Shown: one piece after another, positions 28,685-51,182 of the stretch
How positions within the stretch are numbered: the stretch's first letter is position 1
Layout: each line of letters opens with the position of its first letter
NCBI GenBank assembly: GCA_965247895.1
Contig: OZ252046.1
Location: forward strand, 3,319,155 to 3,383,154
Length of the DNA: 64,000 nt
From: Dehalococcoidia bacterium
Lineage (GTDB): Bacteria; Chloroflexota; Dehalococcoidia; UBA2979
Reading direction: 5' to 3'
Made by a program: the position numbers and the translations under genes
Notes under the pieces: model-generated
Seen by the model: the letters and a program-made list of their open reading frames with translations, nothing else
What the model was told of the DNA's origin: nothing
Databases searched by the model: none

Positions 28685-29512
28685 GTGGTGAGCAGCGAAC
28701 CGGTCATCCCGCGCGAACAACGGCCAGCGATCGCGAACTACCTCTCGCAGCGCCTCGCCGGACCCGTCTCGGTCGAGACCTGGACGCAGCGCGAATCCAG
28801 GCTCGTGCGCACGGACCGCGACCCCTGCATGTTCTGCGAACCGGTCACCAGCGCCGCGAGGCAGCTCGCCGCGCTGCACCCGCTGATCTCGCTCACGCCC
28901 TACGACATCGACAAGCACGCCGACCGCGCCGCCGAGGCCGGCATCGAGCGCCCGCCCGTGACCGTGCTGCGAGGCCGCAACGGCCGCGAGGTCCGCTTCA
29001 CGGGCCTCTGGTCCGGCCTGCTCTTCACGGCCTTCATGGACGCCGTGGTCTACGTCGGCGCGGGCGTCGCGCCGATCAACCCGGAGACGCGCGAGGCGCT
29101 GCAAGCGATCGAGGAAGAGCTGCGGCTCGAGCTGCTCGTCGCGCCCTACGACCCGTACTCGGCCTACACGCTGCGGGTCGCCGCGGCGTTCGCCGTCGAG
29201 GCGCGTCGCGTGCGCCTCGAGGTGATCGAGATCTCCGAGTTCCCGCGGCTGGCGCAGACGCGGATGGTCACCGAGGTCCCGGTGCTGCTGGTCAACGGTC
29301 GCCGCTTCACGGGCGCCTGGGACGAGAACGACCTGCTGGAGCAGTTGAAGCGCGTCGCCGCCAGCGACTCGGAGCCGGTGATCCGCGAGCGCATCCTCGT
29401 CTCGCCCTTCATGGACGTCGACCAGGCGCAGGCGTTCGCCGCCCGCGAGGCGCAGGGCGTCGCCCGCCAGCCGCCCACGACCCCGGGCGGCCTCATCATC
29501 CCCGGCCGCTAG
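28685..29512 (+). CDS. thioredoxin-fold protein with two TRX-like domains (CxxC only in the first)
   Basis: CMFC redox motif; second domain ...VPVLLVNGRRF... lacks cysteines. The last 5 codons lie in a 44-bp sequence repeated at 31526. Confidence 0.5.
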   Translation: MVSSEPVIPREQRPAIANYLSQRLAGPVSVETWTQRESRLVRTDRDPCMFCEPVTSAARQLAALHPLISLTPYDIDKHADRAAEAGIERPPVTVLRGRNGREVRFTGLWSGLLFTAFMDAVVYVGAGVAPINPETREALQAIEEELRLELLVAPYDPYSAYTLRVAAAFAVEARRVRLEVIEISEFPRLAQTRMVTEVPVLLVNGRRFTGAWDENDLLEQLKRVAASDSEPVIRERILVSPFMDVDQAQAFAAREAQGVARQPPTTPGGLIIPGR

Positions 29513-29541
29513 CCGGGGCGGCGAGCGATGTAGATCGCGAT
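29498..29541. repeat. 44-bp direct repeat, copy 1 (relic of the metalloprotease gene 3' end)
   Basis: catccccggccgctagccggggcggcgAgcgaTgtagatCgcg matches 31526..31569 with 3 mismatches. Contains a 7-bp stem hairpin CCCCGGC-cgcta-GCCGGGG. The minus strand encodes ...IAIYIARRPG*, like the metalloprotease C-terminus GGAIYVARRPG*. Confidence 0.6.
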
Positions 29542-31528
29542 CACGGAGTAGTGAGTTCGAACGTCCCGCAGTTGCTGGTGCTGATGCTGGACCACTCCGC
29601 TTGTACTTCGAAGGCGACTCGTCCGGGGCCTGATGCGACGCGGTGGCTGTTGTCGCGGTAGACGCGGCACAGGTTGCCGGTGTTGGTGGCGGCGTACGTG
29701 CCCGGAGCGAGTTCGGAGGGCACGAGGTAGACGCCGTCACCGAAGGAGGCGAGGCGGCTGGGAGTGTGGAGTTCGAACGTACCGCAGTCCCTGACGCGGA
29801 TGCTAGGCTACTCGGGCATTACCTCGAAGGTTATCCGTCCGGGCCCGGACGCCACGAGGCGGCTGTTCTCGCGGTAAACGCGGCATGAGTTGTCTGGGTC
29901 GGCGGCGCGGTACGTTCCCGGTGCGAGTTCGGAGGGCACGAGGTAGACGCCGTCACCGAAGGAGGCGAGGCGGCTGGGAGTGTGGAGTTCGAACGTACCG
30001 CAGTCCCTGACGCGGATGCTGGGCCACTCGGGCATTACCTCGAAGGTTATCCGTCCGGGTCCGGACGCCACGAGGCGGCTGTTCTCGCGGTAAACGCGGC
30101 ATGAGTTGTCTGAGTCGAGGGCGCGGTACGTTCCCGGTGCGAGTTCGGAGGGCACGAGGTAGACGCCGTCACCGAAGGAGGCGAGGCGGCTGGGAGTGTG
30201 GAGTTCGAACGTACCGCAGTCGCTGACGCGGATGCTGGGCCACTCGGGCATTACCTCGAAGGTAATCCGTCCGGGCCCGGACGCCACGAGGCGGCTGTTG
30301 TCGCCGTAAACGCGGCATGAGTTGTCCGTGTCGGTGGCGCGGTACGTTCCCGGCGCGATCTCGGAAGGCACGAGGTAGACGCCGTCACCGAAGGAGGCGA
30401 GGCGGCTCGGAGTGTGGAGTTCGAACGTTCCGCAGTCGCTGACGCGGATGCTGGGCCACTCGGGCACTACCTCGAAGGTTATCCGTCCGGGGCCTGATGC
30501 GACGAGGCGGCTGTTGTCGCCGTAGACGCGGCATGAGTTGTCCGTGTCGGTGGCGCGGTACGTTCCCGGCGCGATCTCGGAAGGCACGAGGTAGGTGCCG
30601 TCACCGAACGCTGCGGGAGCCGCAGCCGTTGGTGTGGGTGCGGGCGTCGCCGCCGCTGCGGATGTTGGCGTAGGAGTGGGCGCGGCCATCGCCGCCGTGG
30701 GCGTGAGCGTAGGTGTGTGCGCGTCGGCCCCCGCCGCCGTGGGCGTGGGCGTGGGCGGGGCCGTCGCTGCCGCTGCGGACGTTGACGTAGGAGCGGGCGC
30801 GGCCGTCGTCGCCGCCGCGGGCGTCGGCGTAGGTGTGTGCGCGTCGGCCCTCGACGCTGTGGGCGTCTCTGTCCTCGCCGCCACAGGCGTGGGCGTAGGT
30901 GAGGGGATGGCGACCCTCGCTGCAGCGGGCGTTGGCTTTGGTGTGGGTACAGACGGAGCCGCGCGTTGAGCGCGGGTTGGTGTTGCGGTTACGGCGTTCG
31001 AGCGGCTGAGAGTCGGCGCGGGAGTCGATCGGCGCAGGGGTGTCGTCGTTGCAGTGCGGGGCGCCACCGTGGCGCGCGCTGTGGCCGGTGGTGTTGAACT
31101 GTCGTCCGACTGCATTTGTCCGACGATGGCTCGACCGACAATGCCGACCGCGAGGACAGCGAGTAGCAGAGTCCACGGCCCGATCCTCGATCGTGAGCGG
31201 CTTGGTGGTGACTCAGGGCTGGCTTGTCGCGGCCTGCTCCGGGTGCCCTGCGTGCCGATCGCGGTTCAGATCCCGAGGTGCGGCCACCCGTATCAGCACG
31301 CGGCGTTCCGGCCCGCCACATGTCGTACGCGCGCCGCTGCTCTGCCCTCGACAGAGTCTCGAACGCGGCGTTGAGCCGTACCATGCGGGTGGCATCCGGC
31401 TCGGAGCTGCTGTCCGGGTGGTACTTGCGGGCGAGGCGACGGTAGGCGGCTTGAATGACCTCGGGCGAGGCGTTCGTGGAGACCTCAAGTTCCTCGTAGA
31501 GATCGAAGTCGGGAAAGCCCTCGCTCAT
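29541..31528 (-). pseudogene. disrupted gene: N-terminal J-domain, TM helix, Pro/Thr-rich linker, 5 x ~60-aa Cys-containing tandem repeat domains
   Basis: Frame 1 (ORF 30989..31528) carries a DnaJ J-domain DFDLYEELEV...YRRLARKYHPD, then garbage-like R-rich text. A different frame holds the TM helix IGPWTLLLAVLAVGIVGRAIVG, the PT linker and repeats (ORF 29808..31115), with no start codon before the TM helix. The last repeat is cut by TAG at 29808-29810, where the other repeats have TGG (Trp). ORF 29541..29723 is the remaining tail. Confidence 0.55.
29545..30600. repeat. ~180-bp near-identical tandem repeats (about 5.8 units) encoding the repeated extracytoplasmic domain
   Basis: Repeated peptide FGDGVYLVPSE(I/L)APGTYRA.D.DNSCRVY(G/R)(D/E)NSRLVASGPGRITFEVMPEWPSIRV(S/R)DCGTFELHTPSRLAS. 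Units differ by only a few nucleotides. Confidence 0.8.
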
Positions 31529-31569
31529 CCCCGGCCGCTAGCCGGGGCGGCGCGCGACGTAGATGGCGC
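31526..31569. repeat. 44-bp direct repeat, copy 2 (true 3' end of the metalloprotease gene, overlapping the J-domain gene start codon)
   Basis: Same sequence as 29498..29541 with 3 mismatches. Confidence 0.6.
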
Positions 31570-32956
31570 CGCCGGCGAGCGCGCCCGCCAGCAGCAACGC
31601 AACGAGGCCGACCGCGATGCCCACGACGGTGTTCGAGCCGCCGCCGCCGGCGCTCGCTGCCGCGGCCGTCGGCTCGGCGCTGTCCGTGCCGGCTCCGGCG
31701 GCAGGGGACGCCGCCTCGCTGGTCGCGGTCGGCGAGGCCTCGTCACGGTCGCCGGAGCCGCCGCTGGCGCCGATTGAGGTCGGGATTGCGAGGGGGGCGC
31801 GGGTCGCCTCGGCGACCGGGGCAGCGGTGGCCTCGGTGCGCGGCGCGTAGTCGATCGGGTCGAGGCCCTTGGCCACGCGCCAGAGGTTGTAGAGCCCGTC
31901 CAGGTCGACTCCGTAGACCTGCTCAAGGCCGCTGTCGGTGGAGGAGCCCTCGCGGATGACGCGGAACAGATCGGCGAATTGCTGCTCGCCGAACTCCTCG
32001 ATCATGTAGTCCACCACGGACCAGGATTGGCCGTATTGGATGTTGATCAGGTTCGGGTTGTTGCTGGGAGACTCCAGGTTGCGCAGGCGCAGCGTGCGGT
32101 CCGCGGCGATCGCGAAGGCGACCGCGTCGTCGTACTCCAGCCGCGAGCTCTGCATGTAGACCGCCGTGCCCTCGTCGAGCCACGAGGGGATCCGGGTGAA
32201 GGGGCCGTCGCCGGCGACGGCGGTAACGATGTGCGCCGCCTCGTGGCGCACGACGTCGATCGTGGCGTGGAAGACGAACAGGAGATCGGGGCTGACCCGC
32301 TGGCCCCCGGTATTCACGAGCCGGTCGAAGACCGCGCCCCGCGAGCGCATCGCCAGCTCGCCGTCGTCCTCGGAGGCCCAGACCATCACGCGCACCGGGT
32401 ACGGAACCTTCACCTGCAGCAGCCGCTCGGTGGCTTCGAGGGACGAGCGGGTGCCCTCCAGCACGCGTTCGGCGCGGTCGTGGTTGGTGCCGTAGTAGTA
32501 GACGGTCACGTCGCCGCCCTGCACGAAGACCCAGGGGTAGCGCCCGTCCAGGAAGAGGTAGCTCTGCTCCTCGGTGACGAAGCTCTCGTCGTCGGCGCCG
32601 GTGAAGCGCCAGTGGTAGCGGAACTGCGACCCGACCGGGATGTAGCGCCGCGACGTCCGCGTCTCGAGGGTGAGCGAGATGTCGAACTCCACGCCGCCCT
32701 CGAAGTCCTCGCGGACCACGCTCCCGCCGACGTCCCCTTCCTTCGGGTTGAGCACGCGATAGACGAGTTCCGCCTCTTTGAGCCCGGCGGAAGCGGCGAC
32801 GCGCACGCTGAAGGTGACCGAGGTCGGATCCTCGCTGCGCACGCGCAGGTTGGACGCCTCGATGCCCTCCGCGCGTGTCGCGCCCGGCCAGGCGAGCGCG
32901 AGGGCGAACGCTGCCGCAAGGCCGACGGAGGCCGCTGTTCGCAGCGCGAGCGTCAC
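31538..32956 (-). CDS. secreted zinc metallopeptidase (HExxH, MA-clan-like) with C-terminal TM anchor
   Basis: Signal peptide, HEAAHIV zinc motif, Ala/Gly/Ser-rich linker, and C-terminal helix VVGIAVGLVALLLAGALAGGAIYVARRPG. Confidence 0.65.
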   Translation of the reverse strand: MTLALRTAASVGLAAAFALALAWPGATRAEGIEASNLRVRSEDPTSVTFSVRVAASAGLKEAELVYRVLNPKEGDVGGSVVREDFEGGVEFDISLTLETRTSRRYIPVGSQFRYHWRFTGADDESFVTEEQSYLFLDGRYPWVFVQGGDVTVYYYGTNHDRAERVLEGTRSSLEATERLLQVKVPYPVRVMVWASEDDGELAMRSRGAVFDRLVNTGGQRVSPDLLFVFHATIDVVRHEAAHIVTAVAGDGPFTRIPSWLDEGTAVYMQSSRLEYDDAVAFAIAADRTLRLRNLESPSNNPNLINIQYGQSWSVVDYMIEEFGEQQFADLFRVIREGSSTDSGLEQVYGVDLDGLYNLWRVAKGLDPIDYAPRTEATAAPVAEATRAPLAIPTSIGASGGSGDRDEASPTATSEAASPAAGAGTDSAEPTAAAASAGGGGSNTVVGIAVGLVALLLAGALAGGAIYVARRPG

Positions 32957-34081: not shown

Positions 34082-34201
34082 ACCTTGATGTTCGCACGGG
34101 TAGGCGCAGAGCGCGAAGGGGCGCGCAGGGTGGTACGCCTTGGCGCGGGCGCTCGCCCGTATACTGCTGTGCAGGACGTGCGCACGGGGAGCGGCGCGGC
34201 G

Positions 34202-34882
34202 ATGAAGAAGCGGCTCACGGTCAACGTGGACGCCGAGGTGATCCCGGCGGCGAAGCGCTACGCCCGAGACCGCGGCGTCTCGTTGTCTTCGCTTGTCGAG
34301 CGATCGCTGCGCGAGCTGGCTGCGGAGGACGGGGCGGCGGCGAGCGATGCGGAGCCCACGACGGCCGCCGAATGGGAAGCGAGACGAGCAGCGTGGTTCG
34401 CAGGCCTGCGCCGCAATCGCAGGCCCGCGGGCCCCAACGCCGACGGCCTCCACGACTTCCGCGCCGGGACGGGCGATGAGGATTCCGAAGAGGTCGCCAG
34501 GGCCTGGGCTACGCGGTGGCGCGCCTGGTTCAACGGCGAACTCCCGCCTCCCCGGCGCAGCAAGGATCCGCGGTACCGCTACCTCGACGAAGGTCTTGGG
34601 AAGACGTACGGCATCCGTTGGACGGAGGATGATGAACCGTCGGCCGCGGAACCGCCCGCGGGACGCGACGCCAGGCGGCCGGGAGGCGACCACACGGATG
34701 ACGATCGGGGATCGTGGCTTGACCGCTGGCTTGAGCAGGCAGGTCCGCCCACCGGCAAGCTCAAGCCCCCCACGGGCGACGACCCTCGCTACGAGTATTA
34801 CTGGTACAAGTACCGCCTCTGGGAGGGGAACGAGGAGGAAGCGTCGGTCGCGGACGACCAGCACGCCCGGGCGACTCGCTGA
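34202..34882 (+). CDS. vapB: VapB-like ribbon-helix-helix antitoxin with unusually long (~170 aa) Trp/Arg/acidic-rich C-terminal extension
   Basis: N-terminus MKKRLTVNVDAEVIPAAKRYARDRGVSLSSLVERSLRELA is typical of VapB/RHH antitoxins. Its stop lies 3 nt before the PIN gene. Start taken at internal ATG 34202 of ORF 33974..34882. Confidence 0.55.
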   Translation: MKKRLTVNVDAEVIPAAKRYARDRGVSLSSLVERSLRELAAEDGAAASDAEPTTAAEWEARRAAWFAGLRRNRRPAGPNADGLHDFRAGTGDEDSEEVARAWATRWRAWFNGELPPPRRSKDPRYRYLDEGLGKTYGIRWTEDDEPSAAEPPAGRDARRPGGDHTDDDRGSWLDRWLEQAGPPTGKLKPPTGDDPRYEYYWYKYRLWEGNEEEASVADDQHARATR

Positions 34883-34885
34883 CCC

Positions 34886-35287
34886 GTGATCCTCATTGAC
34901 AGTGACGTCCTGCTTGATGTCGTGCTCCGGAGGGAACCGCACATCGGGCCATCTCTGGCCTTCCTCACCCAGACCCGGGAAGCCGACGAACTCGCCTCCG
35001 TCGCCTGGCACTCCATCGCGAACGTCTACTACGTCGCGGACCGGCATCACGTGGACGCGAGGGACTTCCTCCTCCGCTTGCTGGACTGGGTCGACATCGC
35101 GCCGACCGATGCGGATTCCGTGCGCTACGCCGCAGCGCTGCCGATGGCGGACTTCGAGGACGCGCTGCAGGCGGCCGCCGCCCGCGCCTGCGACGCCAGA
35201 CACATCGTCACGAGGAACCTCGCGGACTTCGCCGACTCGCCGATTCCGGCGATCAGCCCGCGCGAGGCGCTCCGCAACCTGTCCTGA
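34886..35287 (+). CDS. vapC: PIN-domain ribonuclease toxin VapC
   Basis: MILIDSDVLLDVV... with conserved acidic residues. GTG start. Confidence 0.8.
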   Translation: MILIDSDVLLDVVLRREPHIGPSLAFLTQTREADELASVAWHSIANVYYVADRHHVDARDFLLRLLDWVDIAPTDADSVRYAAALPMADFEDALQAAAARACDARHIVTRNLADFADSPIPAISPREALRNLS

Positions 35288-35305
35288 CGACCGGGGGCCC
35301 GGCCC

Positions 35306-36184: not shown

Positions 36185-36223
36185 GCTTGAATCCTCACGA
36201 GCGGAGAGTATAGCGGTCCGCGC

Positions 36224-36685: not shown

Positions 36686-36751
36686 GCCGAAGTACGGTGA
36701 AACGAACGCTCGCGGCGAGGCGCCTGCGAGCGTAAGCGAGGGGAAGTATTC

Positions 36752-38299: not shown

Positions 38300-38505
38300 G
38301 GCGGCGGCTGCCGGTGGCGCCGTGGGCTCGGCGCTTGACGGGCAGAGGCGGGTAGCCACTACCATGTCGGGGATACGCGTAGACGCGGTAGCGGAACTGA
38401 GCCGCAAGGGGGGCGTCGCGCGGTGATTGCTCACCTCGTTCCATGGCTGTCACACGGGCTCTGTGGAGTTGACGCGCGCGCGCGCGTCGCGCCGGAGCTG
38501 GCGCC

Positions 38506-42061: not shown

Positions 42062-42077
42062 CCCGACCGCCCCGCCA

Positions 42078-43772: not shown

Positions 43773-43779
43773 GGGCCCG

Positions 43780-44058
43780 TCACGCGCGGGTGGGCTCTGC
43801 CTCCAGGCGGCTTGCGCAGCGGCGGGCCTCGGCGGCGAAGGTGTCCTCGTCCGCCGCCCCGCTCACGACGGTCTCTGCAATCAGGGCGAGGCGCTCGACC
43901 ATCTCCGCCTCAGCAGGACCGATCTCGCGGCTGTCCGTAACTGAGACTTCCCAGCCGCGAACCGCGTCAAGATCCATCTCGCCGGCGAGGTAGGCGTTCA
44001 AGGTGAGCAGAAGCTCGTTCTGGAGTAGCGTCAGAGGCATCAGAGGACTTCCCGCCAC
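43780..44058 (-). CDS. hypothetical small protein (92 aa)
   Basis: ORF with balanced, non-Arg-biased composition in an otherwise empty convergent gap. No family recognised. Confidence 0.35.
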   Translation of the reverse strand: MAGSPLMPLTLLQNELLLTLNAYLAGEMDLDAVRGWEVSVTDSREIGPAEAEMVERLALIAETVVSGAADEDTFAAEARRCASRLEAEPTRA

Positions 44059-44195
44059 GAACCGGTACCCTTGCCGCAGATCGTACTACCTGTCTACCAC
44101 GCCGCCACAGTCCCCAACGCCTGACCCCACCTGCCCTCGCGCGCCCGTGCGGTGTAACATCCCGCCACCACGTGCGCGCGGGGGGTGCCGACACG

Positions 44196-46247
44196 ATGAA
44201 CGCCTACACGTCCGAACAGCTTCGCAACGTCGTCCTGCTGGGGCACAGCGGGGCGGGGAAGACGATGCTGGGCGAGGCGATGCTCTTCGCCTCCGGCGTC
44301 ACCAACCGCCTCGGCCGCGTCGAGGACGGCAACACCGTCTCCGACTACGACGCCGAGGAGCACGCCCGCACCTACTCGATCTCGCTCTCCGTGCTGCCCG
44401 TCGAGTGGGCCGGGCAGCGCCTCAACATCATCGACACGCCGGGCTACGCCGACTTCATCGGCGAGGTCGTCAGCGGCCTCGCCGCCGCCGACTCCGCGCT
44501 CATCACCGTCGACGCCTCCAGCGGCATCGAGGCCGGCGCGGAGCTCGCCTGGGATCAGGCGGAGGCGCGCGGCCTGCCGCGCTTCATTGCCGTCACGCGC
44601 ATGGACCGCGAACACGCAAACTTCGAGCAGGTGCTCGACGAGGTGCGCGATCGCTTCGGCGTGAAGGTCGTCCCGCTGGCGATCCCGATCGGGTCCGCCG
44701 ACTCCTTCGAGGGCATCGTCCACCTCGCCAGCGGCGACGCGCGCATGGGCGCCGACGCGACGGCCGGCCCGGCTCCCGACGACCTCGCGGACGCCATCGA
44801 GGCCGCGCGCGAGCAGCTGATCGAGTCGATCGCCGAGACCGACGATGAGCTGCTCGAGCTCTACCTTGAGGGCGAGGATCTGCCGCCCGAGCGTGTCGCG
44901 GCGGTGCTGGCGGCGGCGGTCGCGGCCGGCGACGTGGTGCCGGTGCTGCCGGTCTGCGCCGTCAGCGGCGTCGGCGTGCGGACGCTGCTGAACGAGCTTG
45001 CGAGGCTGCTGCCCTCGCCGCTCGGCAGGGAGCACGAGCTGGCCGACGGCTCCTGCACCACGGACCCCTCGGGCCCGCTGGTGGTGCACGTCTTCAAGAC
45101 GGCCGCGGACCCCTTCGTCGGCAGGCTGACGTTCATGAAGGTGCTGAGCGGGGTGCTCACGCCCGATGCGAACCCTTACAACCCGGAGCGGCGTACCAAC
45201 GAGCGGCTGGGGCATCTCTTCATCCAGCGCGGCAAGGAGCAGATCGAGACGCCGCAGCTGGCCGCGGGCGACATCGGCGTGGCCGCCAAGCTCGCCGAGA
45301 CGATGACCGGCGACACGCTCCTCGGCAGCGACGCGCAGAACGAGCGCGTGCCGGCCCTCCCGTTCCCGGAGGCGACGTTCCGCTCCGCGCTCCACCCGAA
45401 GACGAAGGCCGACGTCGACAAACTCTCCTCGGCCCTCCAGCGGCTGGTCGAGCAGGATCCGACGCTCGCGGTCGTCCGAGACGCGAATACGAGCGAGACG
45501 GTGATGTCGACGATCGGCGACGCGCAGGCCAACATCACCGCCGCGCGCCTCGAGAAGAACTACGGCGTCGAGGTAGACGTGACGATCCCGGTGGTGGCCT
45601 ACCGCGAGACGGTCACGACCAAGGCAAAGGCCGAGTACAGGCACAAGAAGCAGACTGGCGGACACGGCCAGTACGGCCATGTCGTCATCGAGGTCGACGC
45701 GGCCGAGCGCGGTGCGGGGTTCACCTTCGAGCAGAAGGTCGTGGGCGGGAACGTGCCGAGGCAGTTCATCCCCGCGGTCGAGAAGGGCCTGATGGAGACG
45801 CTTCCGGATGGGCCGCTCGCGCACGCGCCGATCGTCGATGTACGCGTGACGCTGCTCGACGGCTCCTCGCACTCGGTGGACTCCTCGGAGATGGCGTTCA
45901 AGCTGGCCGCCGCGCAGGCGCTGAAGCAGGGCTTCCTCGACGCAGGGCCGATCCTGCTGGAGCCGATCGTGCGGCTCGTGGTGCGCGTCCCCGGCGACCG
46001 CGTCGGCGACGTGATGAGCGACCTCAACGGCCGTCGCGGCCAGGTCCACGGCGTGGACACCGAGGGCGACTACAGCGTGATCCAGGGCGAGGCCCCGCTC
46101 GCCGAGATCCAGCGCTACGGCCCCGACCTGCGCTCGATGACCAACGGCCGCGGCACCTTCACCGTCGCCGTCGACCGCTACGCCGAGGTGCCGGTGCACG
46201 TGCAGGAGCAGGTGCTGAAGGAGCTGCAGGCCGCCGCCGAGGCCTAG
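44196..46247 (+). CDS. elongation factor G paralog (EF-G2-like GTPase)
   Basis: GHSGAGKTML, DTPGYADF, plus EF-G domains II-V. Start at MNAYTSEQL (internal Met of ORF 44172..46247). Confidence 0.85.
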   Translation: MNAYTSEQLRNVVLLGHSGAGKTMLGEAMLFASGVTNRLGRVEDGNTVSDYDAEEHARTYSISLSVLPVEWAGQRLNIIDTPGYADFIGEVVSGLAAADSALITVDASSGIEAGAELAWDQAEARGLPRFIAVTRMDREHANFEQVLDEVRDRFGVKVVPLAIPIGSADSFEGIVHLASGDARMGADATAGPAPDDLADAIEAAREQLIESIAETDDELLELYLEGEDLPPERVAAVLAAAVAAGDVVPVLPVCAVSGVGVRTLLNELARLLPSPLGREHELADGSCTTDPSGPLVVHVFKTAADPFVGRLTFMKVLSGVLTPDANPYNPERRTNERLGHLFIQRGKEQIETPQLAAGDIGVAAKLAETMTGDTLLGSDAQNERVPALPFPEATFRSALHPKTKADVDKLSSALQRLVEQDPTLAVVRDANTSETVMSTIGDAQANITAARLEKNYGVEVDVTIPVVAYRETVTTKAKAEYRHKKQTGGHGQYGHVVIEVDAAERGAGFTFEQKVVGGNVPRQFIPAVEKGLMETLPDGPLAHAPIVDVRVTLLDGSSHSVDSSEMAFKLAAAQALKQGFLDAGPILLEPIVRLVVRVPGDRVGDVMSDLNGRRGQVHGVDTEGDYSVIQGEAPLAEIQRYGPDLRSMTNGRGTFTVAVDRYAEVPVHVQEQVLKELQAAAEA

Positions 46248-46253
46248 CCGCCC

Positions 46254-46334
46254 GACCCTTGGGCCGCCTCAGGCCGGCGCGGGGCCGAGTTCCGGGTTGC
46301 GCCAGATCGTCTCGTACTGGCGGCTGCGGATCGC
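46254..46334. repeat. 81-bp direct repeat, copy 1 (orphan duplicate of the 3' end of gene 46984..47442)
   Basis: cccttgggccgcctcaggccggcgcggggccgagttccgggttgcgccagatcgtctcgtactggcggCTgcggatcgcg is identical to 46971..47050 except 1 nt. The minus strand encodes ...AIRSRQYETIWRNPELGPAPA*. Confidence 0.7.
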
Positions 46335-46406
46335 GCCGGGGTTTCTGTATTGGGCGCCCGTAACCTGTGGCACGTATTCCGCACGGTTCCGGCGAGGAGG
46401 CTGGAG

Positions 46407-46964
46407 ATGACGACTGCGGGGACGAGGCTCCTGACTGCCGACGATCTCCTGCGGCTCCACGATGAGGGCGTCCGCGGTGAACTGATCCGGGGAGTGCTTT
46501 CCGAGACTCTGCCGGCTGGACATGCACACGGCAGAATCGTGATGAAGCTGGGCTTCGAGCTGATGAGCTTCGTCGAGCCGCGGCAGCTGGGAACACTTGT
46601 TGGCTCGGACGCCGGTGTCTGGCTGGAGCGTGACCCCGACACCGTGCGCGAGCCCGACTTTGCCCACACCTCGGCTGAGAAGATCCCGTTGGACGCGTGG
46701 ATTGATGGCTACGCCGAGGTGGCGCCGGACCTCGTGGTGGGGGTCGCTTCACCCAGCGACAGCCGGCGCGAGGTCAACGACAAGGCGCTGATGTGGCTGA
46801 GCTACGGCGTGCGCCTCGTATGGGTCGTACACCCGGATACACGGACGGTCGACATACACCGGGAGGGCCGCACGGTCTCGACGCTCGCCGGTGACGACGA
46901 TCTCGACGGCATGGATGTGCTTCCCGGGTTCACCTGCCCGGTGCGCGCCGTGTTCGGGGGGTAA
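46407..46964 (+). CDS. Uma2-family (DUF820) putative restriction-endonuclease-like protein
   Basis: MTTAGTRLLTADDLLRL...PDLVVGV...; GGAGG SD before ATG 46407 (internal Met of ORF 46350..46964). Confidence 0.75.
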   Translation: MTTAGTRLLTADDLLRLHDEGVRGELIRGVLSETLPAGHAHGRIVMKLGFELMSFVEPRQLGTLVGSDAGVWLERDPDTVREPDFAHTSAEKIPLDAWIDGYAEVAPDLVVGVASPSDSRREVNDKALMWLSYGVRLVWVVHPDTRTVDIHREGRTVSTLAGDDDLDGMDVLPGFTCPVRAVFGG

Positions 46965-46970
46965 GGCGAA

Positions 46971-47050
46971 CCCTTGGGCCGCCTCAGGCCGGCGCGGGGC
47001 CGAGTTCCGGGTTGCGCCAGATCGTCTCGTACTGGCGGCCGCGGATCGCG
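46971..47050. repeat. 81-bp direct repeat, copy 2 (functional 3' end of gene 46984..47442)
   Basis: See copy 1. Confidence 0.7.
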
Positions 47051-47442
47051 TTGCCGAGTTCCTGCTGCTCGAGGGCGTAGAGCTCCGCGAGACAGTCCCG
47101 GGCGCGCGCCAACTCGGCCTCGCCCCCTGTCGCGCCGAGGCGCGCGACCACGTGCTCCCAGACGCCGGCCTCCTCGAGCGCTCCGACGCGCCGCGTCCAG
47201 GGGATCAGCGTGATCGAGTCCGGGCGCGGGAGCCGGGGGCGCAGTCGCTTCAGCGACTCGAAGCGCTCCCTCGGGTTGCGCACCATCGGCACGACGCCGA
47301 TGTAGGGGCGGACGAACTTGCCGGATCGCGTGTCCAGCAGCAGCGTCCGGCGCAGCATCGGGAAGTAGATCGAGACGACCGAGGCCTCCTCGATGTTCTC
47401 GCAGATGCCCTCGATGTCGATTTCGAAGCCTCCGTCAAGCAT
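46984..47442 (-). CDS. hypothetical protein (152 aa) immediately downstream of tyrS
   Basis: ORF with an 8-nt overlap onto the tyrS start. Its C-terminus ...GRQYETIWRNPELGPAPA is duplicated at 46254..46334. Confidence 0.5.
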   Translation of the reverse strand: MLDGGFEIDIEGICENIEEASVVSIYFPMLRRTLLLDTRSGKFVRPYIGVVPMVRNPRERFESLKRLRPRLPRPDSITLIPWTRRVGALEEAGVWEHVVARLGATGGEAELARARDCLAELYALEQQELGNAIRGRQYETIWRNPELGPAPA

Positions 47443-48679
47443 CGCTTGCTCCTGACTCCTTCACTCCATCGGGGTTCGCGACCAGCCGCAGGAAGCGCCG
47501 GCGCCCCACGCGCAGCTCGTCGCCCGGGTGGACCGTGCAGTCGAACGCCGAGACCGGCTCGCCGTTGACGCGCACCGCGCCCTGCTCGACGAGCCGTCGC
47601 ACCTCGGCGCCGCTCTTCGCAAGTTCGGCGTCCACCAGCACGCGGTCGAGGCGTCCCGATGGCGCGAGCGCGCCGTCCGGCGCGAGCGCGTACACCGGCA
47701 TCTCGTCCGGAGTCTGGCGGCGCTGGAACGTCGACTCGAAGTAGTCGCGTGCGGCCTCGGCCGCGGCGGCATCGTGCAGCCCGGAGGTGATCTCGAAGGC
47801 GAGCCGCTTCTTTGCCTCCATCGGCGAGCCCGCGAGCAGCGCCGCGATCTCCACGCCCGAGAGGTCCGTGAGCAGCGTGAAGTAGTTGCGCAGCGAGGAG
47901 TCCGGGATCGACATCACCTTGCCGAACAGGTCGTTCGGCGGCTCGTCGATGCCGATGTGGTTGCCGAGCGACTTCGACATCTTCTCGTGGCCGTCGGTGC
48001 CGGCGAGGAGCGGCAGCGTGATCGCGATCTGCGGACGTTGGCCGTACTCGCGCTGGAGCTGGCGGCCGGCCATCAGGTTGAAGAGCTGGTCGCTGCCGCC
48101 GATCTGCACGTCGGTCTCCATCGCGACCGCGTCGTAGGCCTGCATCAGCGCGTAGAGGAACTCGCTGACGTGGATCGGGTCGTGGCGCTCGAAGCGGCGC
48201 GCGAGATTGTCGCGCTCCAGGAACTGCGCCACCGTGAAGTGCGAGGCGAGGCGCAGCACCTCGCCGAAGTTGAGCTTGCCGAGCCAGTCCGCGTTGCGCC
48301 GCACGATCGTGCGCTCCCGGTCCAGGATGCGGAACACCTGGTCCACGTAGGTGCGGCTGTTCGCCTCGATCTCCTCCGGGGAGAGCATCGGGCGGGTCTT
48401 GTTCTTGTCCGAGGGGTCGCTGACGAGGCTGGTGAAGTTGCCGATCAGGAACGTCACCTCGTGGCCGAAGTCCTGGAAGGTGCGCAGCTTGCGCATCGTC
48501 AGCGTGTGGCCGAGGTGCAGATCGACCGCCGTCGGGTCGTAGCCGCAGTAGACGCGCAGCGGACGGCCCTCGGCGAGCCGCTCGCGCAACTCGCGCTCCA
48601 TCGTGCGGCGCGTCGCCTCGTCCCCGAACTCCGCGCCGCGCATGATCGCGGCGAACTGCTGCTCGATCGTTGCGCTCAT
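47435..48679 (-). CDS. tyrS: tyrosyl-tRNA synthetase
   Basis: HIGH-type motif DLHLGH, KMSKSLGN, C-terminal S4 domain. Confidence 0.9.
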   Translation of the reverse strand: MSATIEQQFAAIMRGAEFGDEATRRTMERELRERLAEGRPLRVYCGYDPTAVDLHLGHTLTMRKLRTFQDFGHEVTFLIGNFTSLVSDPSDKNKTRPMLSPEEIEANSRTYVDQVFRILDRERTIVRRNADWLGKLNFGEVLRLASHFTVAQFLERDNLARRFERHDPIHVSEFLYALMQAYDAVAMETDVQIGGSDQLFNLMAGRQLQREYGQRPQIAITLPLLAGTDGHEKMSKSLGNHIGIDEPPNDLFGKVMSIPDSSLRNYFTLLTDLSGVEIAALLAGSPMEAKKRLAFEITSGLHDAAAAEAARDYFESTFQRRQTPDEMPVYALAPDGALAPSGRLDRVLVDAELAKSGAEVRRLVEQGAVRVNGEPVSAFDCTVHPGDELRVGRRRFLRLVANPDGVKESGASDA

Positions 48680-49656
48680 GCGAACCAGGCCCGGGTCTCT
48701 TCGACGTCGCGGCGGATCTGCGCGATCAGCGCCTCGGGACCGTCGAATTTCTGCTCCGGGCGCAGGCGGTGCAGCAACTCCACCGAGGCGATCCGGTCGT
48801 AGAGGTCGCCCTCGAAGTCCAGCAGGTGCGTCTCCACCGAACGCCGCACCCCGTCGAAGGTGGGGCGCACGCCGATGTTCGTGCAGCTCTCGAGACTGCG
48901 GCCGCCGACCTCGGTGCGCGAGGCGTAGACGCCGTCGGCGGGAAGCGCGAGGTCGGGGCTGAGGCCGAGGTTGATCGTCGGGAAGCCGATCGTGCGGCCG
49001 CGCTCGTCGCCGTGAACGATCGGGCCGCGCAGCGCGAACGGGCGGCCCAGCAGGTCTTCCGCCTCCGCCATCAATCCGGCCGCCAGCGCTTCACGCACGC
49101 GCGTCGAGGAGACCGGCGCGCCGTCCTCCGGCAGCAGCTCGATCGGCTGCACCTCGAAGCCGAGGTCGAGCCCGAGTTCGGCGAGGCGCTCCGGCGTGCC
49201 CTCGCGGTTGCGTCCGAGGGCGAAGTCGCGCCCGATGACGATCAGCTTCAGCTCGGTCTCCTCGACGAGGATGCGCGCGAAGTCCTCGGCGGAGACCTGC
49301 GCGAGCTCGGAGGTGAACTGCACGACCGCGACGAAGTCGACGCCCGTGGTGCGGAGTTGTTCGACGCGCGTTTCGAGGGAGGTGAGGTAGGAGATCTCGA
49401 TGTCGGGGCGGAGCACGGTGATCGGGTGCGGGTGGAAGGTGACGATGCCGGCGCCGAGCTGGCGGGCGGCGGCCTCCGCGCGCAGACGCTCGACGAGCAT
49501 CCGGTGGCCTCGGTGGACCCCGTCGAAGACGCCAAGCGTCAGGGCGTGCGCACCCGGCGTGACAGCGCGGCGCAGTTCCTCGCGAATGAGTAGCACGTGG
49601 TGGACTGGCCCCCTCATGGCCGCCGTCGGCGCGACCGCGAGTGTCGATCGTAGCAC
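48676..49656 (-). CDS. ribF: bifunctional riboflavin kinase / FAD synthetase
   Basis: GVFDGVHRGH and the flavokinase C-terminal domain. The start may be the internal Met at ~49617. Confidence 0.85.
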   Translation of the reverse strand: MLRSTLAVAPTAAMRGPVHHVLLIREELRRAVTPGAHALTLGVFDGVHRGHRMLVERLRAEAAARQLGAGIVTFHPHPITVLRPDIEISYLTSLETRVEQLRTTGVDFVAVVQFTSELAQVSAEDFARILVEETELKLIVIGRDFALGRNREGTPERLAELGLDLGFEVQPIELLPEDGAPVSSTRVREALAAGLMAEAEDLLGRPFALRGPIVHGDERGRTIGFPTINLGLSPDLALPADGVYASRTEVGGRSLESCTNIGVRPTFDGVRRSVETHLLDFEGDLYDRIASVELLHRLRPEQKFDGPEALIAQIRRDVEETRAWFA

Positions 49657-49697
49657 CGGCCGGATCGCAGCTTCAAACGGCAGGGCCCGGCGCGCCC

Positions 49698-49766
49698 CTA
49701 TCCGTCGCCGGGTTCCTCCGTCACGGGCAGCGCGGGCTGCGGCGAGGCGCCCTCGATGCGCGCGAG
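49698..49766. repeat. ~69-bp direct repeat, copy 1 (orphan duplicate of the scpA 3' end)
   Basis: ctatccgtcgccgggttcctccgTcacgggcagcgcgggctgcggcgaggcgccctcgatgcgcgcgag matches 51114..51182 with 1 mismatch. The minus strand encodes ...[21 protein letters not shown]. Confidence 0.7.
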
Positions 49767-49779
49767 CGAGCGTCGCCTG

Positions 49780-50448
49780 CTATCCGTACCTATGGGCCAG
49801 GGCATAGGCCAGCCGGTCAGCCAGTGGGTGCTCATCGATCCTGCGCAGTTGGTCAACGAGTTCAGGCCGCGACTGCGGCAAAACGCCAGCATCGCTCAGG
49901 GCTGCGCGGGCGAGGTGCGTCAGCATCGAGACACTGAGTTCGGCGGCGGCGTCATGATCGCCGGCCGTCCGCATCTCGTCGTAGAGGCGTTGTGTCCTGT
50001 TCGCGCGCTCCCGTGCTTCGGTCGCCGACGGCAACACGAGTCGGTGGTTCCAGTTAGCCCGAAGTAGCGACCACCAGCCATTGCGCTCGAACAGCACCCG
50101 ACCGTAGCGCACCGTCCAGGAGAGGTAATCGTGACCGGCCTTGAGCTTTCGCGCGACGCCGGCCTGCTCGTACTGCCGCAGGTCTACATCGATCGGCGGC
50201 CGCGGCAGGCCGGGCCGACGTCCCCAGTACACCAGCACGATGTCGAGGTCGTCGCTGTGGTCGACGGCGCGGATGGCTGAGCCGGAGACGACGATCGCCT
50301 GAACCGCCAAGTTTCGGCTGGCGCCCGCCAGGGCGTCGAGCGTCCACGCTCGTGCGCCAGTGCTCGGCCACGACCGTACAGCAGTGAGCACGTCGCCCAG
50401 CGCTTGCGGTGGGCATGCTGACCGATCCGTCGTTTGCCGCTGCGTCAT
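49780..50448 (-). CDS. nucleotidyltransferase (Pol-beta superfamily) protein, possibly with a fused HEPN-like C-terminal half
   Basis: GS-x9-13-DxD nucleotidyltransferase motif (VVSGSAIRAVDHSDDLDIVLV). The C-terminal half contains RTAGDH, which fits the HEPN Rx4H pattern. Confidence 0.55.
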   Translation of the reverse strand: MTQRQTTDRSACPPQALGDVLTAVRSWPSTGARAWTLDALAGASRNLAVQAIVVSGSAIRAVDHSDDLDIVLVYWGRRPGLPRPPIDVDLRQYEQAGVARKLKAGHDYLSWTVRYGRVLFERNGWWSLLRANWNHRLVLPSATEARERANRTQRLYDEMRTAGDHDAAAELSVSMLTHLARAALSDAGVLPQSRPELVDQLRRIDEHPLADRLAYALAHRYG

Positions 50449-50636
50449 TCTGCGAGTAACGTTCCCACGGAGTCGACGTACTCCTCGATCGCGGCGGCAG
50501 TCTCCTCCGGACTCAGGTTCTCGGGGGGATAGATATCTCCGTATGCCTCGTGCTTGCGCGTCTCGTTCAGGTCGACAAGCAGGCCGTCTATGTATGGCAA
50601 GCCGTGCCCCTCGCTGAGGAGTTCGGCCATCTCCAC
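50445..50636 (-). CDS. small ORF (63 aa) translationally coupled upstream of the nucleotidyltransferase gene
   Basis: ATGA-type overlap with the downstream gene and acidic composition. Possible antitoxin or partner protein. Confidence 0.3.
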
Positions 50637-50666
50637 CTTGGCGTGGTGGGAGAGTGTAGCAGGGAA

Positions 50667-50701
50667 CCGTTGAGGCGCATGATGCCGATGCGCCTCAACG
50701 G
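50667..50701. promoter_or_regulatory. perfect 12-bp inverted repeat (CCGTTGAGGCGC-N11-GCGCCTCAACGG) just upstream of the small-ORF/NTase pair; candidate operator
   Basis: Seen directly in the sequence, about 30 nt upstream of the 50636 start codon on the minus strand. Confidence 0.35.
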
Positions 50702-51113
50702 TCGTCGCACTTCTGGGCAGGCCCCAGACTCACGGTCACCGTACCGAGGCCCCGTCATGCTCGCGTCGCCGATGACGCCGCCAGAAGTCTTCTGCGCTCG
50801 GACCAGATCGCTGCCCGGCGACTCGCGCCCGCCTGCGGCAGTGTCCGGCCCAGCATCGAATAGCAGGTGGTGGGTGGCGCGAGACGAGGCTATCGGGTCG
50901 GGTTGCTCGTGGCTGGCGACGCACACCTTGGCCTGCCCCCACAGGCGGTTGCTCGCTGAGGGCTTTTCGGACACCGAGACCGAGCGGCGTCTCGGTAGGA
51001 CGCGCCGGGCGTGCAGTCGCTTCAAGCTGCCGCGGGAGGTCGAAGAACTTGAGGCTCGCCCTGTTCGAACTCAGGGCGCCGGAGGTCGCTGCAGCGTTCG
51101 CTCGCAGCCCTCG

Positions 51114-51182
51114 CTATCCGTCGCCGGGTTCCTCCGCCACGGGCAGCGCGGGCTGCGGCGAGGCGCCCTCGATGCGCGCGAG
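51114..51182. repeat. ~69-bp direct repeat, copy 2 (true scpA 3' end)
   Basis: See copy 1 at 49698..49766. Confidence 0.7.

Follow-up and report, generated by a model that had tools for sequence, protein, structure and literature searches.

Three islets of accessory genes in a sponge-associated Dehalococcoidia genome are each flanked by a pair of direct repeats, and these repeats are very probably locus-specific duplications of the local target that were made by general recombination or repair. The islets vary among strains and occupy very short spacers that adjoin core-gene ends. Relatives without an islet carry a single copy of the repeat, so the repeats are genuine traces of gain and loss through recombination, and neither an integrase nor a transposon left them.

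RESULTS

Direct repeats at the ends of three core genes

The sequence analyzed, here called the window, was a 64-kb stretch of the genome. It was compared with about 30 related loci from metagenomes and MAGs, and precursor forms were sought in about 20 genomes. When the window was compared to itself by BLAST, three direct-repeat pairs emerged; the only other dispersed repeats were a couple of paralogous KAS genes and, at proS, a weak pair of 28 nt. The three pairs, which the original prediction had located correctly, are 44, 81, and 69 nt long at sites A, B, and C, respectively (self-BLAST E values of 2e-10, 3e-37, and 5e-30), and their copies are 93 to 99% identical, with 3, 1, and 1 mismatches. 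At all three sites the pair flanks accessory cargo, and the copy with the higher coordinates forms the functional 3′ end of a core gene on the minus strand (the host gene). Each repeat carries the stop codon and the last 9 to 22 codons of the host gene; the exact numbers, 9, 21, and 22 codons plus the stop, replace the 15 to 27 codons first proposed. We found no sequence or structure common to the three repeats, which agrees with the prediction that they are locus specific and not a shared att site, and, except for a hairpin at site A, they fold no better than shuffled sequences.

Site A lies between a thioredoxin-like core gene on its left (28685..29512, plus strand; a weak match to Pfam Thioredoxin_3) and the host gene, a Peptidase_MA_2 gene (31538..32956, minus strand; Pfam E = 1.4e-24). 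The functional copy of the repeat (31525-31568) is the 3′ end of the peptidase gene and has the ATG of the cargo gene at its edge; the 44-nt relic copy (29496-29539) is identical to it at 41 of 44 positions. Besides 9 codons and the stop of the peptidase gene, the repeat holds the last 14 nt and the stop of the convergent thioredoxin-like gene, and the two stop codons overlap in a CTAG that is covered by a 7-bp GC hairpin. The relic copy combines the functional end of the thioredoxin-like gene with a nonfunctional end of the peptidase gene. Since these two genes overlap, a simple precursor could not have formed without cutting into one or the other. The cargo is a DnaJ-domain gene (29541..31528, minus strand; Pfam DnaJ E = 2.9e-17) whose product consists of a J-domain, a transmembrane segment, a Pro/Thr linker, and five 72-amino-acid (aa) repeats. 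In the window a frame change splits the gene, and there is an in-frame TGA (29808-29810) in the fourth repeat; in L012 the cargo is one open reading frame (ORF) of 518 aa. Four loci carry this cargo (the window, L008, L009, and L012), all with the repeats and the same joints.

Site B is flanked on the left by an EF-G-like core gene (44172..46247, plus strand). Its host gene (46984..47442, minus strand) encodes a hypothetical 152-aa protein that has no Pfam or NCBIfam match and occurs in identical form on five other contigs. The 81-nt relic copy (46255-46335) and the functional copy at the 3′ end of the host gene (46970-47050) are identical at 80 of 81 positions and comprise 14 nt of intergenic DNA, the stop codon, and the last 21 codons. 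Between them is a 634-nt Uma2 cassette (46336..46969, plus strand; Pfam Uma2 E = 1.7e-30), made up of 71 nt of upstream DNA that include a promoter-like sequence, an ORF (46407-46964), and 5 nt. The same cassette with the same joint between relic and cargo was found in L001 to L004, L006, L031, and L110; all eight carrier contigs, the window included, have the repeats and the same joints, and the repeat length among them is 81 to 105 nt.

At site C the host gene is scpA (51114..51974, minus strand; Pfam SMC_ScpA), and the downstream flank is the core gene ribF (48676..49656, minus strand). The functional copy at the scpA 3′ end (51114-51182) and the 69-nt relic copy (49698-49766), identical at 68 of 69 positions, hold the stop codon and the last 22 codons of scpA. 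The cargo (49767..51091, minus strand) consists of an NTase-fold gene (49780-50448, minus strand), the 5′-truncated remnant of a HEPN-like gene (50445-50636, minus strand), and about 450 nt of noncoding DNA, with a perfect hairpin at approximately 50666-50702. The 222-aa protein is predicted to have a nucleotidyltransferase fold (AF2 model with a pLDDT of 87.6; Foldseek matches to HalB and KNTase, E = 6e-7). As for the cargo identities first proposed, DnaJ, Uma2, and the NTase fold held up; the HEPN-like partner is a weak match (E = 0.007, for the version in strain L110). L110 is the only other carrier of this cargo and has the repeats and the same joints; its relic copy matches the functional copy of the window at every position, and relative to L110 the cargo in the window has deletions of 51 nt and about 210 nt.

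The sequences next to the two copies at site C differ. Between the scpA stop codon and the cargo are 22 nt of native scpA-ribF intergenic DNA of the L004/L009 type (51092..51113, minus strand); on the scpA side, homology continues past the repeat for 22 nt of native spacer. Following the relic scpA stop, this native block is replaced by a 19-nt block, GGGCGCGCCGGGCCCTGCC (49679..49697, minus strand), after which the native sequence restarts at GTTTGAAG. The 19-nt block was seen only in the window, L110, and L001. With the native 22 nt after the functional copy and the 19-nt allele after the relic, site C appears to have one novel joint and two allelic contexts.

Could strain bubbles have been flattened during assembly into a false tandem layout, or could the copies be a template and variable repeat pair like that of a diversity-generating retroelement (DGR)? 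The source population has coexisting strains that differ at exactly these sites, and at the few positions where the copies differ, the gene has G and the relic has A. We find either idea hardly credible. Assemblies made independently from different samples contain the same joints (eight contigs for site B, L008 and L012 for site A, and L110 for site C), so the repeat-flanked forms are not artifacts, a point on which the original prediction had advised caution, and the novel joints share no more than 4 nt with native sequence, which makes an assembly graph artifact implausible. As for a DGR, no reverse transcriptase is among the called genes of the window, cargo included, and the copies are 93 to 100% identical.

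Variation among related strains

All three sites are polymorphic hot spots among the approximately 30 related loci. Empty alleles in relatives, expected from the outset to hold a single repeat copy, were found at every site and have exactly one: four genomes at site A (L010, L011, L013, and L014), seven at site B (L007 to L010, L012, L014, and L016), and six at site C (L001, L004, L009, L010, L012, and L016). The repeats are, as in an insertion-duplication, copies of the local target. Other strains have different cargo at the same hot spots, with short repeats or none. In L007, site A holds unrelated cargo with a 16-nt repeat that is just the gene overlap. Site B has other cargo in L013, for which no flanking repeat was found, and in L005, the sequence of which is too short for a repeat check. 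The other cargo at site C in L002 and L003 has no flanking repeat, nor does the cargo at the prfB|folD site.

The islets do not all represent fresh insertions. Cargoes A and B are old and of single origin: they are common to two species-level clades and diverge in step with their flanks, and the relic copies at both sites remain like the functional copy of the same genome. Simple, repeat-free forms of cargoes A, B, and C were not found among about 20 genomes. Single-nucleotide polymorphism (SNP) patterns in the flanks are mosaic.

The one-copy empty sites are what would be left if the repeats served as substrates for homologous recombination and the islets were lost precisely, and either conversion or recombination with empty alleles may have kept the relic copy close in sequence to the functional copy. 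Two cases suggest deletion through the repeats. In clade II, empty site A comes in two kinds, which match the two copy types of L012; there the relic copy, with a 10-nt spacer, is of the type of the empty sister L010, and the functional copy differs. The second case is L001, which is empty at site C and has the 19-nt block otherwise seen only beside the relic copy.

Comparison with known element classes

Neither the cargo nor the rest of the 64-kb window contains an integrase, a transposase, or terminal inverted repeats, as predicted for a system without a classical integrase or insertion sequence (IS), and no site-specific recombinase was found in the cargo, the window, or any allele of the three sites (about 30 loci). 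We rejected an att-type integrase element because cargoes at the same site share no repeat (44 versus 16 nt at site A, 81 to 105 nt versus none found at site B, and 69 nt versus none at site C). A transposon or IS was rejected because there is no transposase, the cargo ends are unrelated between loci, and the duplications vary from 16 to 250 nt. Also rejected were a DGR (no reverse transcriptase; only 1, 1, and 3 mismatches, not restricted to A), an integron cassette (cargo ends without a conserved or structured element; no integrase), and a free-standing homing endonuclease (a nuclease-family protein in cargo B only; copies 93 to 100% identical).

The repeats might still be the attL and attR sites of integrase-less, cis-mobilizable elements that bring a replacement 3′ end and are moved by a tyrosine or serine recombinase encoded elsewhere. 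The layout does resemble that of 3′-end islands, in which one copy restores the gene, a relic lies at the far side, and empty sites are precise; identity segments of 44 to 81 bp are within the known range for actinomycete integrative elements; and in related genomes serine recombinases adjoin a Uma2 paralogue. However, three different “att” sequences within 22 kb would require three specificities, none of the approximately 30 site alleles has a recombinase, cargoes at the same site have different repeats or none, the repeats have no common core or structure, and at site C homology runs on for 22 nt of native spacer after the repeat ends. We therefore regard this explanation as very improbable.

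Further examples

Other cases, as had been anticipated, exist in the window and elsewhere. The fourth example in the window is a relic proS 5′ end (13060..13108, plus strand) that contains the first ∼15 codons, is a copy of 13321-13369, and precedes the real start, at 13325, by 261 nt. The duplicate, noted in the original prediction, is real and is also present in seven other strains (L114 to L119 and L121).

At the sucC|sucD site, L114 and L116 have an intact cargo gene of 222 aa and no repeat. L119 has the same left junction as L114 and L116 and has kept only a mid-gene remnant of the cargo. The remnant adjoins another copy of the sucD 5′ end, along with an entire spacer of the empty type; the repeat is 72 to 80 nt. 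As at site C, there appears to be a single novel joint.

Long target duplications also occur at Uma2 loci, of about 250 nt in L057/L058/L067 and about 125 nt in L068. Taken together, the repeat lengths of all examples form a continuum: 0, 16, 44, 69, 81 to 105, ∼125, and ∼250 nt. Uma2 is a PD-(D/E)XK nuclease, and the cargo could drive its own mobility if Uma2 acted as a homing or nicking endonuclease that makes staggered breaks, much as free-standing endonuclease ORFs in fungal mitochondria bring along a duplicate of a gene 3′ end. The family is hugely expanded in these symbionts (6,848 matches at E < 1e-20, with several copies per genome), at least two other Uma2 loci have the long duplications just described, and the cassettes are compact, running from promoter through stop codon; each of two unrelated loci has a cassette of 634 nt. 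Nevertheless, Uma2-driven mobility seems improbable to us. Two of the three cargoes in the window have no nuclease, the near-identity of the copies would leave a recognition site cleavable in the occupied allele, and cassette-end sequences are not conserved between loci. Most Uma2 loci are free of repeats, and, with tandem paralogues removed, the excess of repeat-flanked Uma2 loci over control positions was not significant (2/53 versus 1/179; P = 0.13).

DISCUSSION

Of the routes considered, the one that we favor, at about an even chance, is recombination between a cargo-bearing and an empty allele with one homologous side and one illegitimate joint (Campbell or HFIR type). Illegitimate recombination would first put the cargo into the spacer, and the result would be a simple form whose repeat is short or missing, as was seen for other cargoes at the same hot spots. 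A linear or recircularized fragment with the cargo and only one homologous flank, the host-gene end, would then recombine with a cargo-free allele, a step that one case supports; alternatively, a cargo-bearing allele could be partly overwritten by an empty one. The joints would be made by homologous recombination within the host gene on one side and by a single illegitimate joint on the other. Because the empty allele retains its own copy of the gene end, that segment would come to lie on both sides of the cargo, as in a Campbell- or HFIR-type insertion-duplication. Only products in which both neighboring genes are intact would survive, which would explain why the duplicated segment is always a gene end. 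Deletion and conversion of the RecA type, mediated by the repeats, would follow.

Several observations favor this route. The two copies at site C are in different spacer alleles, and the relic copy of L012 at site A is of the L010 type. In L119, the remnant of a cargo that is intact and repeat free in sister strains is joined to a second sucD 5′ end. One-copy empty alleles occur at all three sites, no repeat sequence is shared, and there is no recombinase in the window. There is also an experimental precedent in E. coli (PMC3240628).

Other observations count against it. All 4, 8, and 2 carriers of cargoes A, B, and C are repeat flanked, with no simple precursor found, and at site A the gene overlap rules against a simple precursor without gene damage. 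The 16-nt repeat of L007 is below the length that RecA needs, so some duplications, at the least, come about when the cargo is first inserted; homology of 44 to 81 nt is itself near the lower limit for an efficient RecA crossover. L119 could be derived by deletions from an unobserved repeat-flanked ancestor, and sites A and B are old, leaving site C and L119 as the places where a single novel joint is seen. Two alleles are suggested by the differing spacers at site C and the differing L012 copies at site A; the flank SNPs are mosaic, however, and instead of an allele that was already present, the 19-nt block may represent filler DNA. Finally, a route through homology shifts cargo only between alleles of one locus and does not explain its first arrival. 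The Campbell-type origin proposed in the original prediction is thus favored by the site C spacer alleles, L119, and the E. coli precedent; it is not proven, and the first arrival of the cargo is left unexplained.

A serious rival, possible though on the unlikely side in our judgment, is that break repair at the primary insertion created the target duplication. Two nicks, or a staggered or gapped break, 16 to 250 nt apart at a gene end would be filled in from both sides, and foreign DNA would be ligated or copied between them by NHEJ-like joining or MMBIR-type template switching. The copies would be identical at birth, and no homologous donor allele would be needed. Break repair fits the continuum of repeat lengths from 0 to ∼250 nt, the joints that look blunt with no clear microhomology, the repeats in every carrier of cargoes A, B, and C, and the 100% identity of the L110 relic at site C to the functional copy of the window. 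It also fits site A, where the gene overlap leaves only insertion with duplication viable and the L007 cargo duplicates just the 16-nt overlap. On the other hand, simple duplication of one resident sequence does not give the 22-nt and 19-nt spacers of site C, and L119 has the junction of the repeat-free L114 and L116 and ends in mid-cargo. To our knowledge, no bacterial process has been documented as routinely giving target duplications of 40 to 250 nt.

Recombination between cargo-bearing and empty alleles has its closest parallel in E. coli conjugation, in which recircularized fragments with one-sided homology integrated by a single crossover, and 56 of 60 integrants had duplications of 109 to 950 bp (Amarir-Bouhram et al. 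2011, PMC3240628). In the same work, true HFIR occurred at one-tenth of that frequency, and three of its four joints were without homology (PMC3240628). As in those Campbell-type integrants, the foreign DNA here lies between direct copies of a chromosomal segment, the repeats are locus specific, there is no dedicated recombinase, and there appears to be one illegitimate joint, in most cases lacking microhomology; homologous recombination can undo the structure. The differences are that the duplications here are shorter (44 to 81 nt in the window and up to ∼250 nt elsewhere), that the events are natural, some of them ancient, in an uncultivated lineage of Chloroflexota, and that a circular intermediate is only putative.

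HFIR is also known from natural transformation (de Vries and Wackernagel 2002; Prudhomme et al. 2002), and, as recounted in PMC3240628 and PMC2884548, it accounts for dimorphic or polymorphic small variable segments between strains. Going by these accounts, it shares with our sites an anchor of homology within a conserved gene and, apparently, the single illegitimate joint. Its classical products, again as described there, combine an insertion with a deletion of recipient DNA, whereas at our sites the illegitimate joint falls behind the point where homology begins, which gives a duplication instead. In E. coli, S. aureus, and S. pyogenes, 10 to 18% of variable segments are flanked by direct repeats, 66 to 94% of which are <30 bp and ascribed to slippage (Touzain et al. 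2010, PMC2884548). Like our islets, those segments are strain variable and at hot spots, and deletion between repeats is one source of their polymorphism (PMC2884548). Unlike them, the islets have repeats of 44 to 81 nt that always include a gene end, hold whole accessory genes, and persist across species-level divergence.

Genomic islands and cis-mobilizable elements that tyrosine recombinases insert at the 3′ end of a tRNA gene or a protein gene likewise have a duplicated 3′ end (attL/attR), an intact gene, and one-copy empty sites; here, by contrast, there is no integrase and no shared core, the extent of the repeat varies between cargoes at the same site, and homology at site C runs past the repeat into the native spacer. 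Fungal mitochondria reportedly have mobile endonuclease ORFs that bring with them a duplicate of the C-terminal portion of an atp6, cox, or nad gene. The order is the same as here (host gene, new 3′ end, cargo, and old 3′ end as a relic), but there the cargo is the endonuclease and the copies differ, whereas here two of the three cargoes are nuclease free and the copies are nearly identical.

The original prediction had taken the mechanism to be undescribed as a general one in this kind of genome. It is already known from laboratory work (PMC3240628) and so is not a new one; the islets of these Dehalococcoidia are a known kind of event, documented here in natural genomes.

Direct repeats and the gene ends that they copy

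A repeat search and self-BLAST of the window recovered all three direct-repeat pairs of the original prediction. Repeat A (29496-29539 and 31525-31568) is 44 nt long, with 41/44 positions identical (E value, 2e-10); repeat B (46255-46335 and 46970-47050) is 81 nt long, with 80/81 identical (3e-37); and repeat C (49698-49766 and 51114-51182) is 69 nt long, with 68/69 identical (5e-30). The three repeats are mutually unrelated in sequence. In every pair, the copy at higher coordinates, here called the functional copy, serves as the 3' end of a core gene on the minus strand, which encodes Peptidase_MA_2 at site A, a hypothetical protein of 152 aa at site B, and ScpA at site C; the other copy, across the cargo, is called the relic. 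The coding part that is duplicated amounts to 9, 21, and 22 codons, respectively, plus the stop. Because the two stops overlap in CTAG, repeat A also includes the last 14 nt and stop of a convergent thioredoxin-like gene; repeat B includes 14 nt of intergenic DNA. A comparison of the repeat folds with shuffled sequences found a hairpin only at site A, with z-scores of −1.8 to +1.7, and attC-like, hairpin-structured repeats were rejected on this basis.

The only other repeats of this sort in the 64 kb were two paralogous ketoacyl-synthase genes and a weak 28-nt proS pair. The duplicate of the proS 5' end is an additional example besides the three sites. Gene ends were always involved, 5' ends included (proS and, in relatives, sucD). 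Between the proS relic and proS itself (13110-13215) lies a promoter-like sequence, TTGACA...TAGCGT, followed by a GC-rich multihairpin element of ∼65 nt, TTGGCCAGTGACAAGAGCCCCCGGGCTCTTCCGGCGGAAGCCGGATAGCTGGCC, that ends in TTTTCTC. Two tandem copies of this element precede a DUF4238 gene in the related locus L120 (2998-3150). It has no match in Rfam and may be a small RNA or a repeated element.

Cargo genes

The DNA between repeat copies has a lower G+C content (0.63 to 0.68) than the ∼0.72 found otherwise. The product of cargo A has a DnaJ domain, a transmembrane segment, and 72-aa repeats. Its gene (29541-31528) contains 216-nt tandem repeats whose copy number varies among strains. The window's version has a frame change between the J domain and the repeat part, with an in-frame TGA (TGG to TGA) in repeat 4; in the related locus L012, the same cargo is a single open reading frame (ORF) of 518 aa. 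The window copy looks decayed or split.

Cargo B encodes a Uma2 protein. The 222-aa protein of cargo C has no Pfam match but has a nucleotidyltransferase (NTase) fold (AF2 pLDDT, 87.6; Foldseek matches to HalB and kanamycin NTase), and upstream of its gene is a 5'-truncated remnant of a weakly HEPN-like gene. Compared with positions 4070-5682 of L110, a second contig from the sample of L002, cargo C of the window (49767-51091) lacks 51 nt and ∼210 nt; these losses remove the 5' part of the HEPN-like gene and leave the NTase gene intact. L110 has a more divergent scpA allele beside the same cargo, which shows that recombination has occurred around this islet. ARAGORN called a tRNA-SeC in cargo C (50990-51085), with a T-arm-like GCCCTGTTCGAACTCAGGGC, but tRNA-linked integration was rejected: the call has no Rfam support, and ARAGORN makes no such call in L110, where the 51 extra nt interrupt the sequence. 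Sequence annotation searches with the 222-aa, 125-aa, and 152-aa proteins and the alternative cargoes gave no match at curated thresholds. Three other loci with members of the cargo C family (L111 to L113) have no target repeats. In L112 and L113 (3872-3920 and 6349-6397), a perfect palindrome of 43 to 49 nt, CGTCGGGGCGTCCCTTGTGGGCGCCCACAAGGGACGCCCCGA, which may be a dispersed REP-like element, flanks a 2.4-kb segment that includes the NTase homologue.

The window has other accessory DNA. An accessory-gene block at 4125-9833 holds an 855-aa ORF without a Pfam match, a leucine-rich-repeat protein built of 72-nt repeats (6693-8393), and a Fic/DOC gene (9237-9833). Sponge symbionts typically have repeat proteins of a eukaryote-like kind. 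Short 9/15-nt repeats at 63689-63814, CCACGACGACCACGCCGGGCATGAC, would encode a His/Asp-rich stretch.

Alleles in related genomes

The host lineage is sponge-associated Dehalococcoidia (Chloroflexota). Exact-protein look-ups with the peptidase and with the window's Uma2 returned no match, and relatives were reached instead by exact look-up of short neighboring proteins. This gave ∼30 homologous loci from independent metagenome assemblies and metagenome-assembled genomes, which form two clades at roughly 85 to 90% DNA identity.

At site A, the window's cargo is also present in L008, L009, and L012; L010, L011, L013, and L014 are empty with a single copy, L007 carries an unrelated 351-aa gene with a 16-nt repeat (CCCGGCCGYTAGCCGG), and L006 is rearranged. 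At site B, the cargo is shared with L001 to L004, L006, L110, and L031; seven loci (L007 to L010, L012, L014, and L016) are single-copy empty, and L013 and L005 have other cargo. At site C, only L110 shares the cargo; L001, L004, L009, L010, L012, and L016 are single-copy empty, and L002 and L003 have a different 780-nt cargo with no repeat. Empty sites in relatives had been expected to hold one copy of the repeat, and they do so at A, B, and C. Assembly error, which had also been raised, is excluded because identical joints recur in assemblies from different samples.

All three sites are multiallelic hot spots, and so is the prfB|folD spacer (34120-35303), which in the window holds a DUF6364/PIN (VapBC-like) module with no flanking repeat. 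In relatives, this spacer is empty, has a 30-nt filler, or has other cargo exactly at the folD stop codon. Variation was also seen at the recJ|EF-G spacer; in the window (43772-44100) this spacer holds a small minus-strand ORF, and in L006 (15255-16626) and L007 (15251-17564) it holds 1.3 to 2.3 kb of other DNA.

Age, homogenization, and loss

Cargoes A and B have diverged in step with their flanks. For cargo B, identity to the window was 98.7% in L002 (flanks, 98 to 99.7%), 95% in L006 (91 to 95.5%), and 80% in L031 (86 to 90%); for cargo A, it was 82 to 89% in L008 (91 to 95%) and 76 to 84% in L012 (84 to 87%). The joints between relic and cargo are alike in both clades: at site B, the distance from the repeat end to the ATG is 71 nt in both the window and L031, and at site A the cargo stop is followed by 1 to 3 nt and then the relic. 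Therefore, cargoes A and B are old insertions of single origin with many later losses, not fresh events.

Despite its age, the nonfunctional relic at site B is 95 to 100% identical to the functional copy of its own genome, and it has clade-specific variants (GGGGCCGAG in clade I and GGACCCGGG in L031). Because of this match, we infer either conversion between the copies or repeated refreshing of the relic from empty alleles; these data fit both. Traces of loss were also seen. Empty A sites in clade II are of two kinds, with and without a 10-nt spacer, which suggests crossovers on either side of the spacer between the two copy types of L012. L001, which is empty at site C, has a 19-nt block (GGGCGCGCCGGGCCCTGCC) found elsewhere only beside the relic copy, suggesting loss through the repeats. 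Very probably, general recombination or repair made the repeats as target duplications specific to each locus, and the repeats mediate precise loss.

Origin of the duplications

The chances are about even that the duplications arose through one homologous side and one illegitimate joint when a cargo-bearing allele recombined with an empty one, as the junctions of site C and a case at sucC|sucD (L119) suggest. Beyond the functional scpA copy at site C lie first 22 nt of native spacer, of the type that L004, L009, and L110 have, and then the cargo; on the far side come the relic, the different 19-nt block, and native sequence that resumes exactly at GTTTGAAG. The layout therefore contains a single novel joint, from the cargo end to scpA position −69, and, judged by their sequence surroundings, the copies appear to belong to different allelic contexts. 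SNP phasing around the site for donor versus recipient gave an uninformative mosaic pattern, and the 19-nt block could be filler.

A further hot spot is the sucC|sucD spacer. In L114 (968-1636) and L116, it holds a cargo gene for a 222-aa protein, intact and with no repeat. L119 (1492-1790) has the same left junction, but of that gene only a piece from the middle is left (LKEFHYDVTWAEFDG). This remnant directly abuts a second sucD 5' end with its ribosome-binding region and an empty-type spacer that is intact; the resulting repeat is 72 to 80 nt, 45 nt of which is 98% identical. A single recombination event between two allele types that were both observed would explain L119, which could also derive from an unseen repeat-flanked ancestor.

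In E. coli given DNA with one-sided homology, 56/60 integrants had duplications of 109 to 950 bp of the homologous segment, produced by single crossovers of fragments that had been partly degraded and recircularized; the frequency of true HFIR was 10 times lower, and three of its four joints were without homology (PMC3240628). One-sided recombination would also account for the tight cargo boundaries (stop plus 1 nt, stop plus 13 nt, and −35 box to stop codon). A fragment reaching usable homology on the far side would recombine on both sides and leave no repeat, and one ending within the cargo would leave junk of the L119 kind; intact cargo plus a repeat would result only if the fragment ended within the stretch, a few nucleotides long, that separates the cargo gene from the far flank.

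No repeat-free precursors of cargoes A, B, and C were found among the related loci, and a simple precursor at site A would damage a core gene because two core genes overlap there. In addition, the 16-nt repeat around the other cargo of L007 is too short for RecA, and therefore some duplications arise at primary insertion. These points favor target duplication by break repair at that step, which we consider a serious but less probable source of the repeats.

Recombinases, nucleases, and other element-specific routes

Routes that depend on a dedicated recombinase or on another element-specific process are unlikely. There was no integrase or transposase among the window's called genes or the gene calls at these sites in the retrieved loci. 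The repeats share no common core and are not unusually structured, and repeat extent differs between cargoes at one site. A diversity-generating retroelement (DGR) is excluded, as there is no reverse transcriptase and the copies have too few mismatches. A nuclease route driven by Uma2 fails to explain the two nuclease-free cargoes.

A census of flanking repeats, drawing on 77 metagenome loci, gave a raw excess at Uma2 genes (6/55 versus 1/179; P = 0.0008). Two raw positives were tandem paralogues and two were the same locus; after curation (2/53 versus 1/179; P = 0.13), the apparent excess was gone, and Uma2-specific mobility was rejected. Two further Uma2 loci do have target duplications, of ∼125 nt and ∼250 nt. 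A circular Uma2 element was likewise rejected, as the identical 127-nt ends of L054 are an IS1595 fragment. Tandem Uma2 paralogues occur in L111 (7826-8657; 96% identity over 149 nt, with a 683-nt period), L036 (3745-4557), and L092 (1645-3184), and unequal crossover between cassette-flanking repeats could be their source. A recombinase acting in trans, nuclease-driven mobility, and artifact jointly share what probability the other readings leave.

Relation to known systems and significance

The closest known systems are Campbell-type insertion-duplication and HFIR (PMC3240628), together with the direct-repeat-flanked variable segments of E. coli, S. aureus, and S. pyogenes, 10 to 18% of which have repeats, mostly <30 bp (PMC2884548). 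Particular to the window are the density (three in 22 kb plus the proS 5'-end example), the repeat length of 44 to 81 nt, the presence of a gene end in every duplication (a 5' end at proS and sucD), persistence over species-level divergence with homogenized copies, and the setting in uncultivated sponge symbionts. In the literature searched, we found no published account of Uma2 cassettes or of this layout in such genomes. The insertion architecture originally proposed is real, and its original interpretation is right in part. The islets are a well-documented natural case of a known kind of recombination product and not a new mobile element or mechanism, and the window reveals no new enzyme or element class.

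We think it improbable that the duplicated gene end is a maintained "homology address" of integrase-less cassettes or that an undiscovered dedicated activity makes 40- to 250-nt duplications. Under the address reading, a population of minimal cassettes (for example, Uma2, NTase/HEPN pairs, and repeat proteins) may exist in sponge-symbiont Chloroflexota and perhaps more widely among symbionts; their only "mobility module" would be the duplicate of the neighboring core gene. Host recombination would excise the cassette as a circle and reinsert it at the same locus in other strains, and, over species-level timescales, conversion would preserve the match between address and host gene.

Read as products of general recombination or repair, the islets make the window an uncommonly clear natural record of the way in which a compact genome gains and loses small accessory genes (defense and toxin-antitoxin-like modules, nuclease-family genes, and repeat proteins of eukaryote-like type) with no mobile-element machinery involved. 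Because gene ends are duplicated, both neighboring core genes stay intact; the duplications also make the islet reversibly deletable, with repeats kept homogeneous over long times. If the pattern is genome-wide, the footprint would be a simple marker of recombination-driven islets in metagenome-assembled genomes, and the frequency of one-sided (illegitimate plus homologous) recombination in the flexible genomes of uncultivated symbionts could be estimated.
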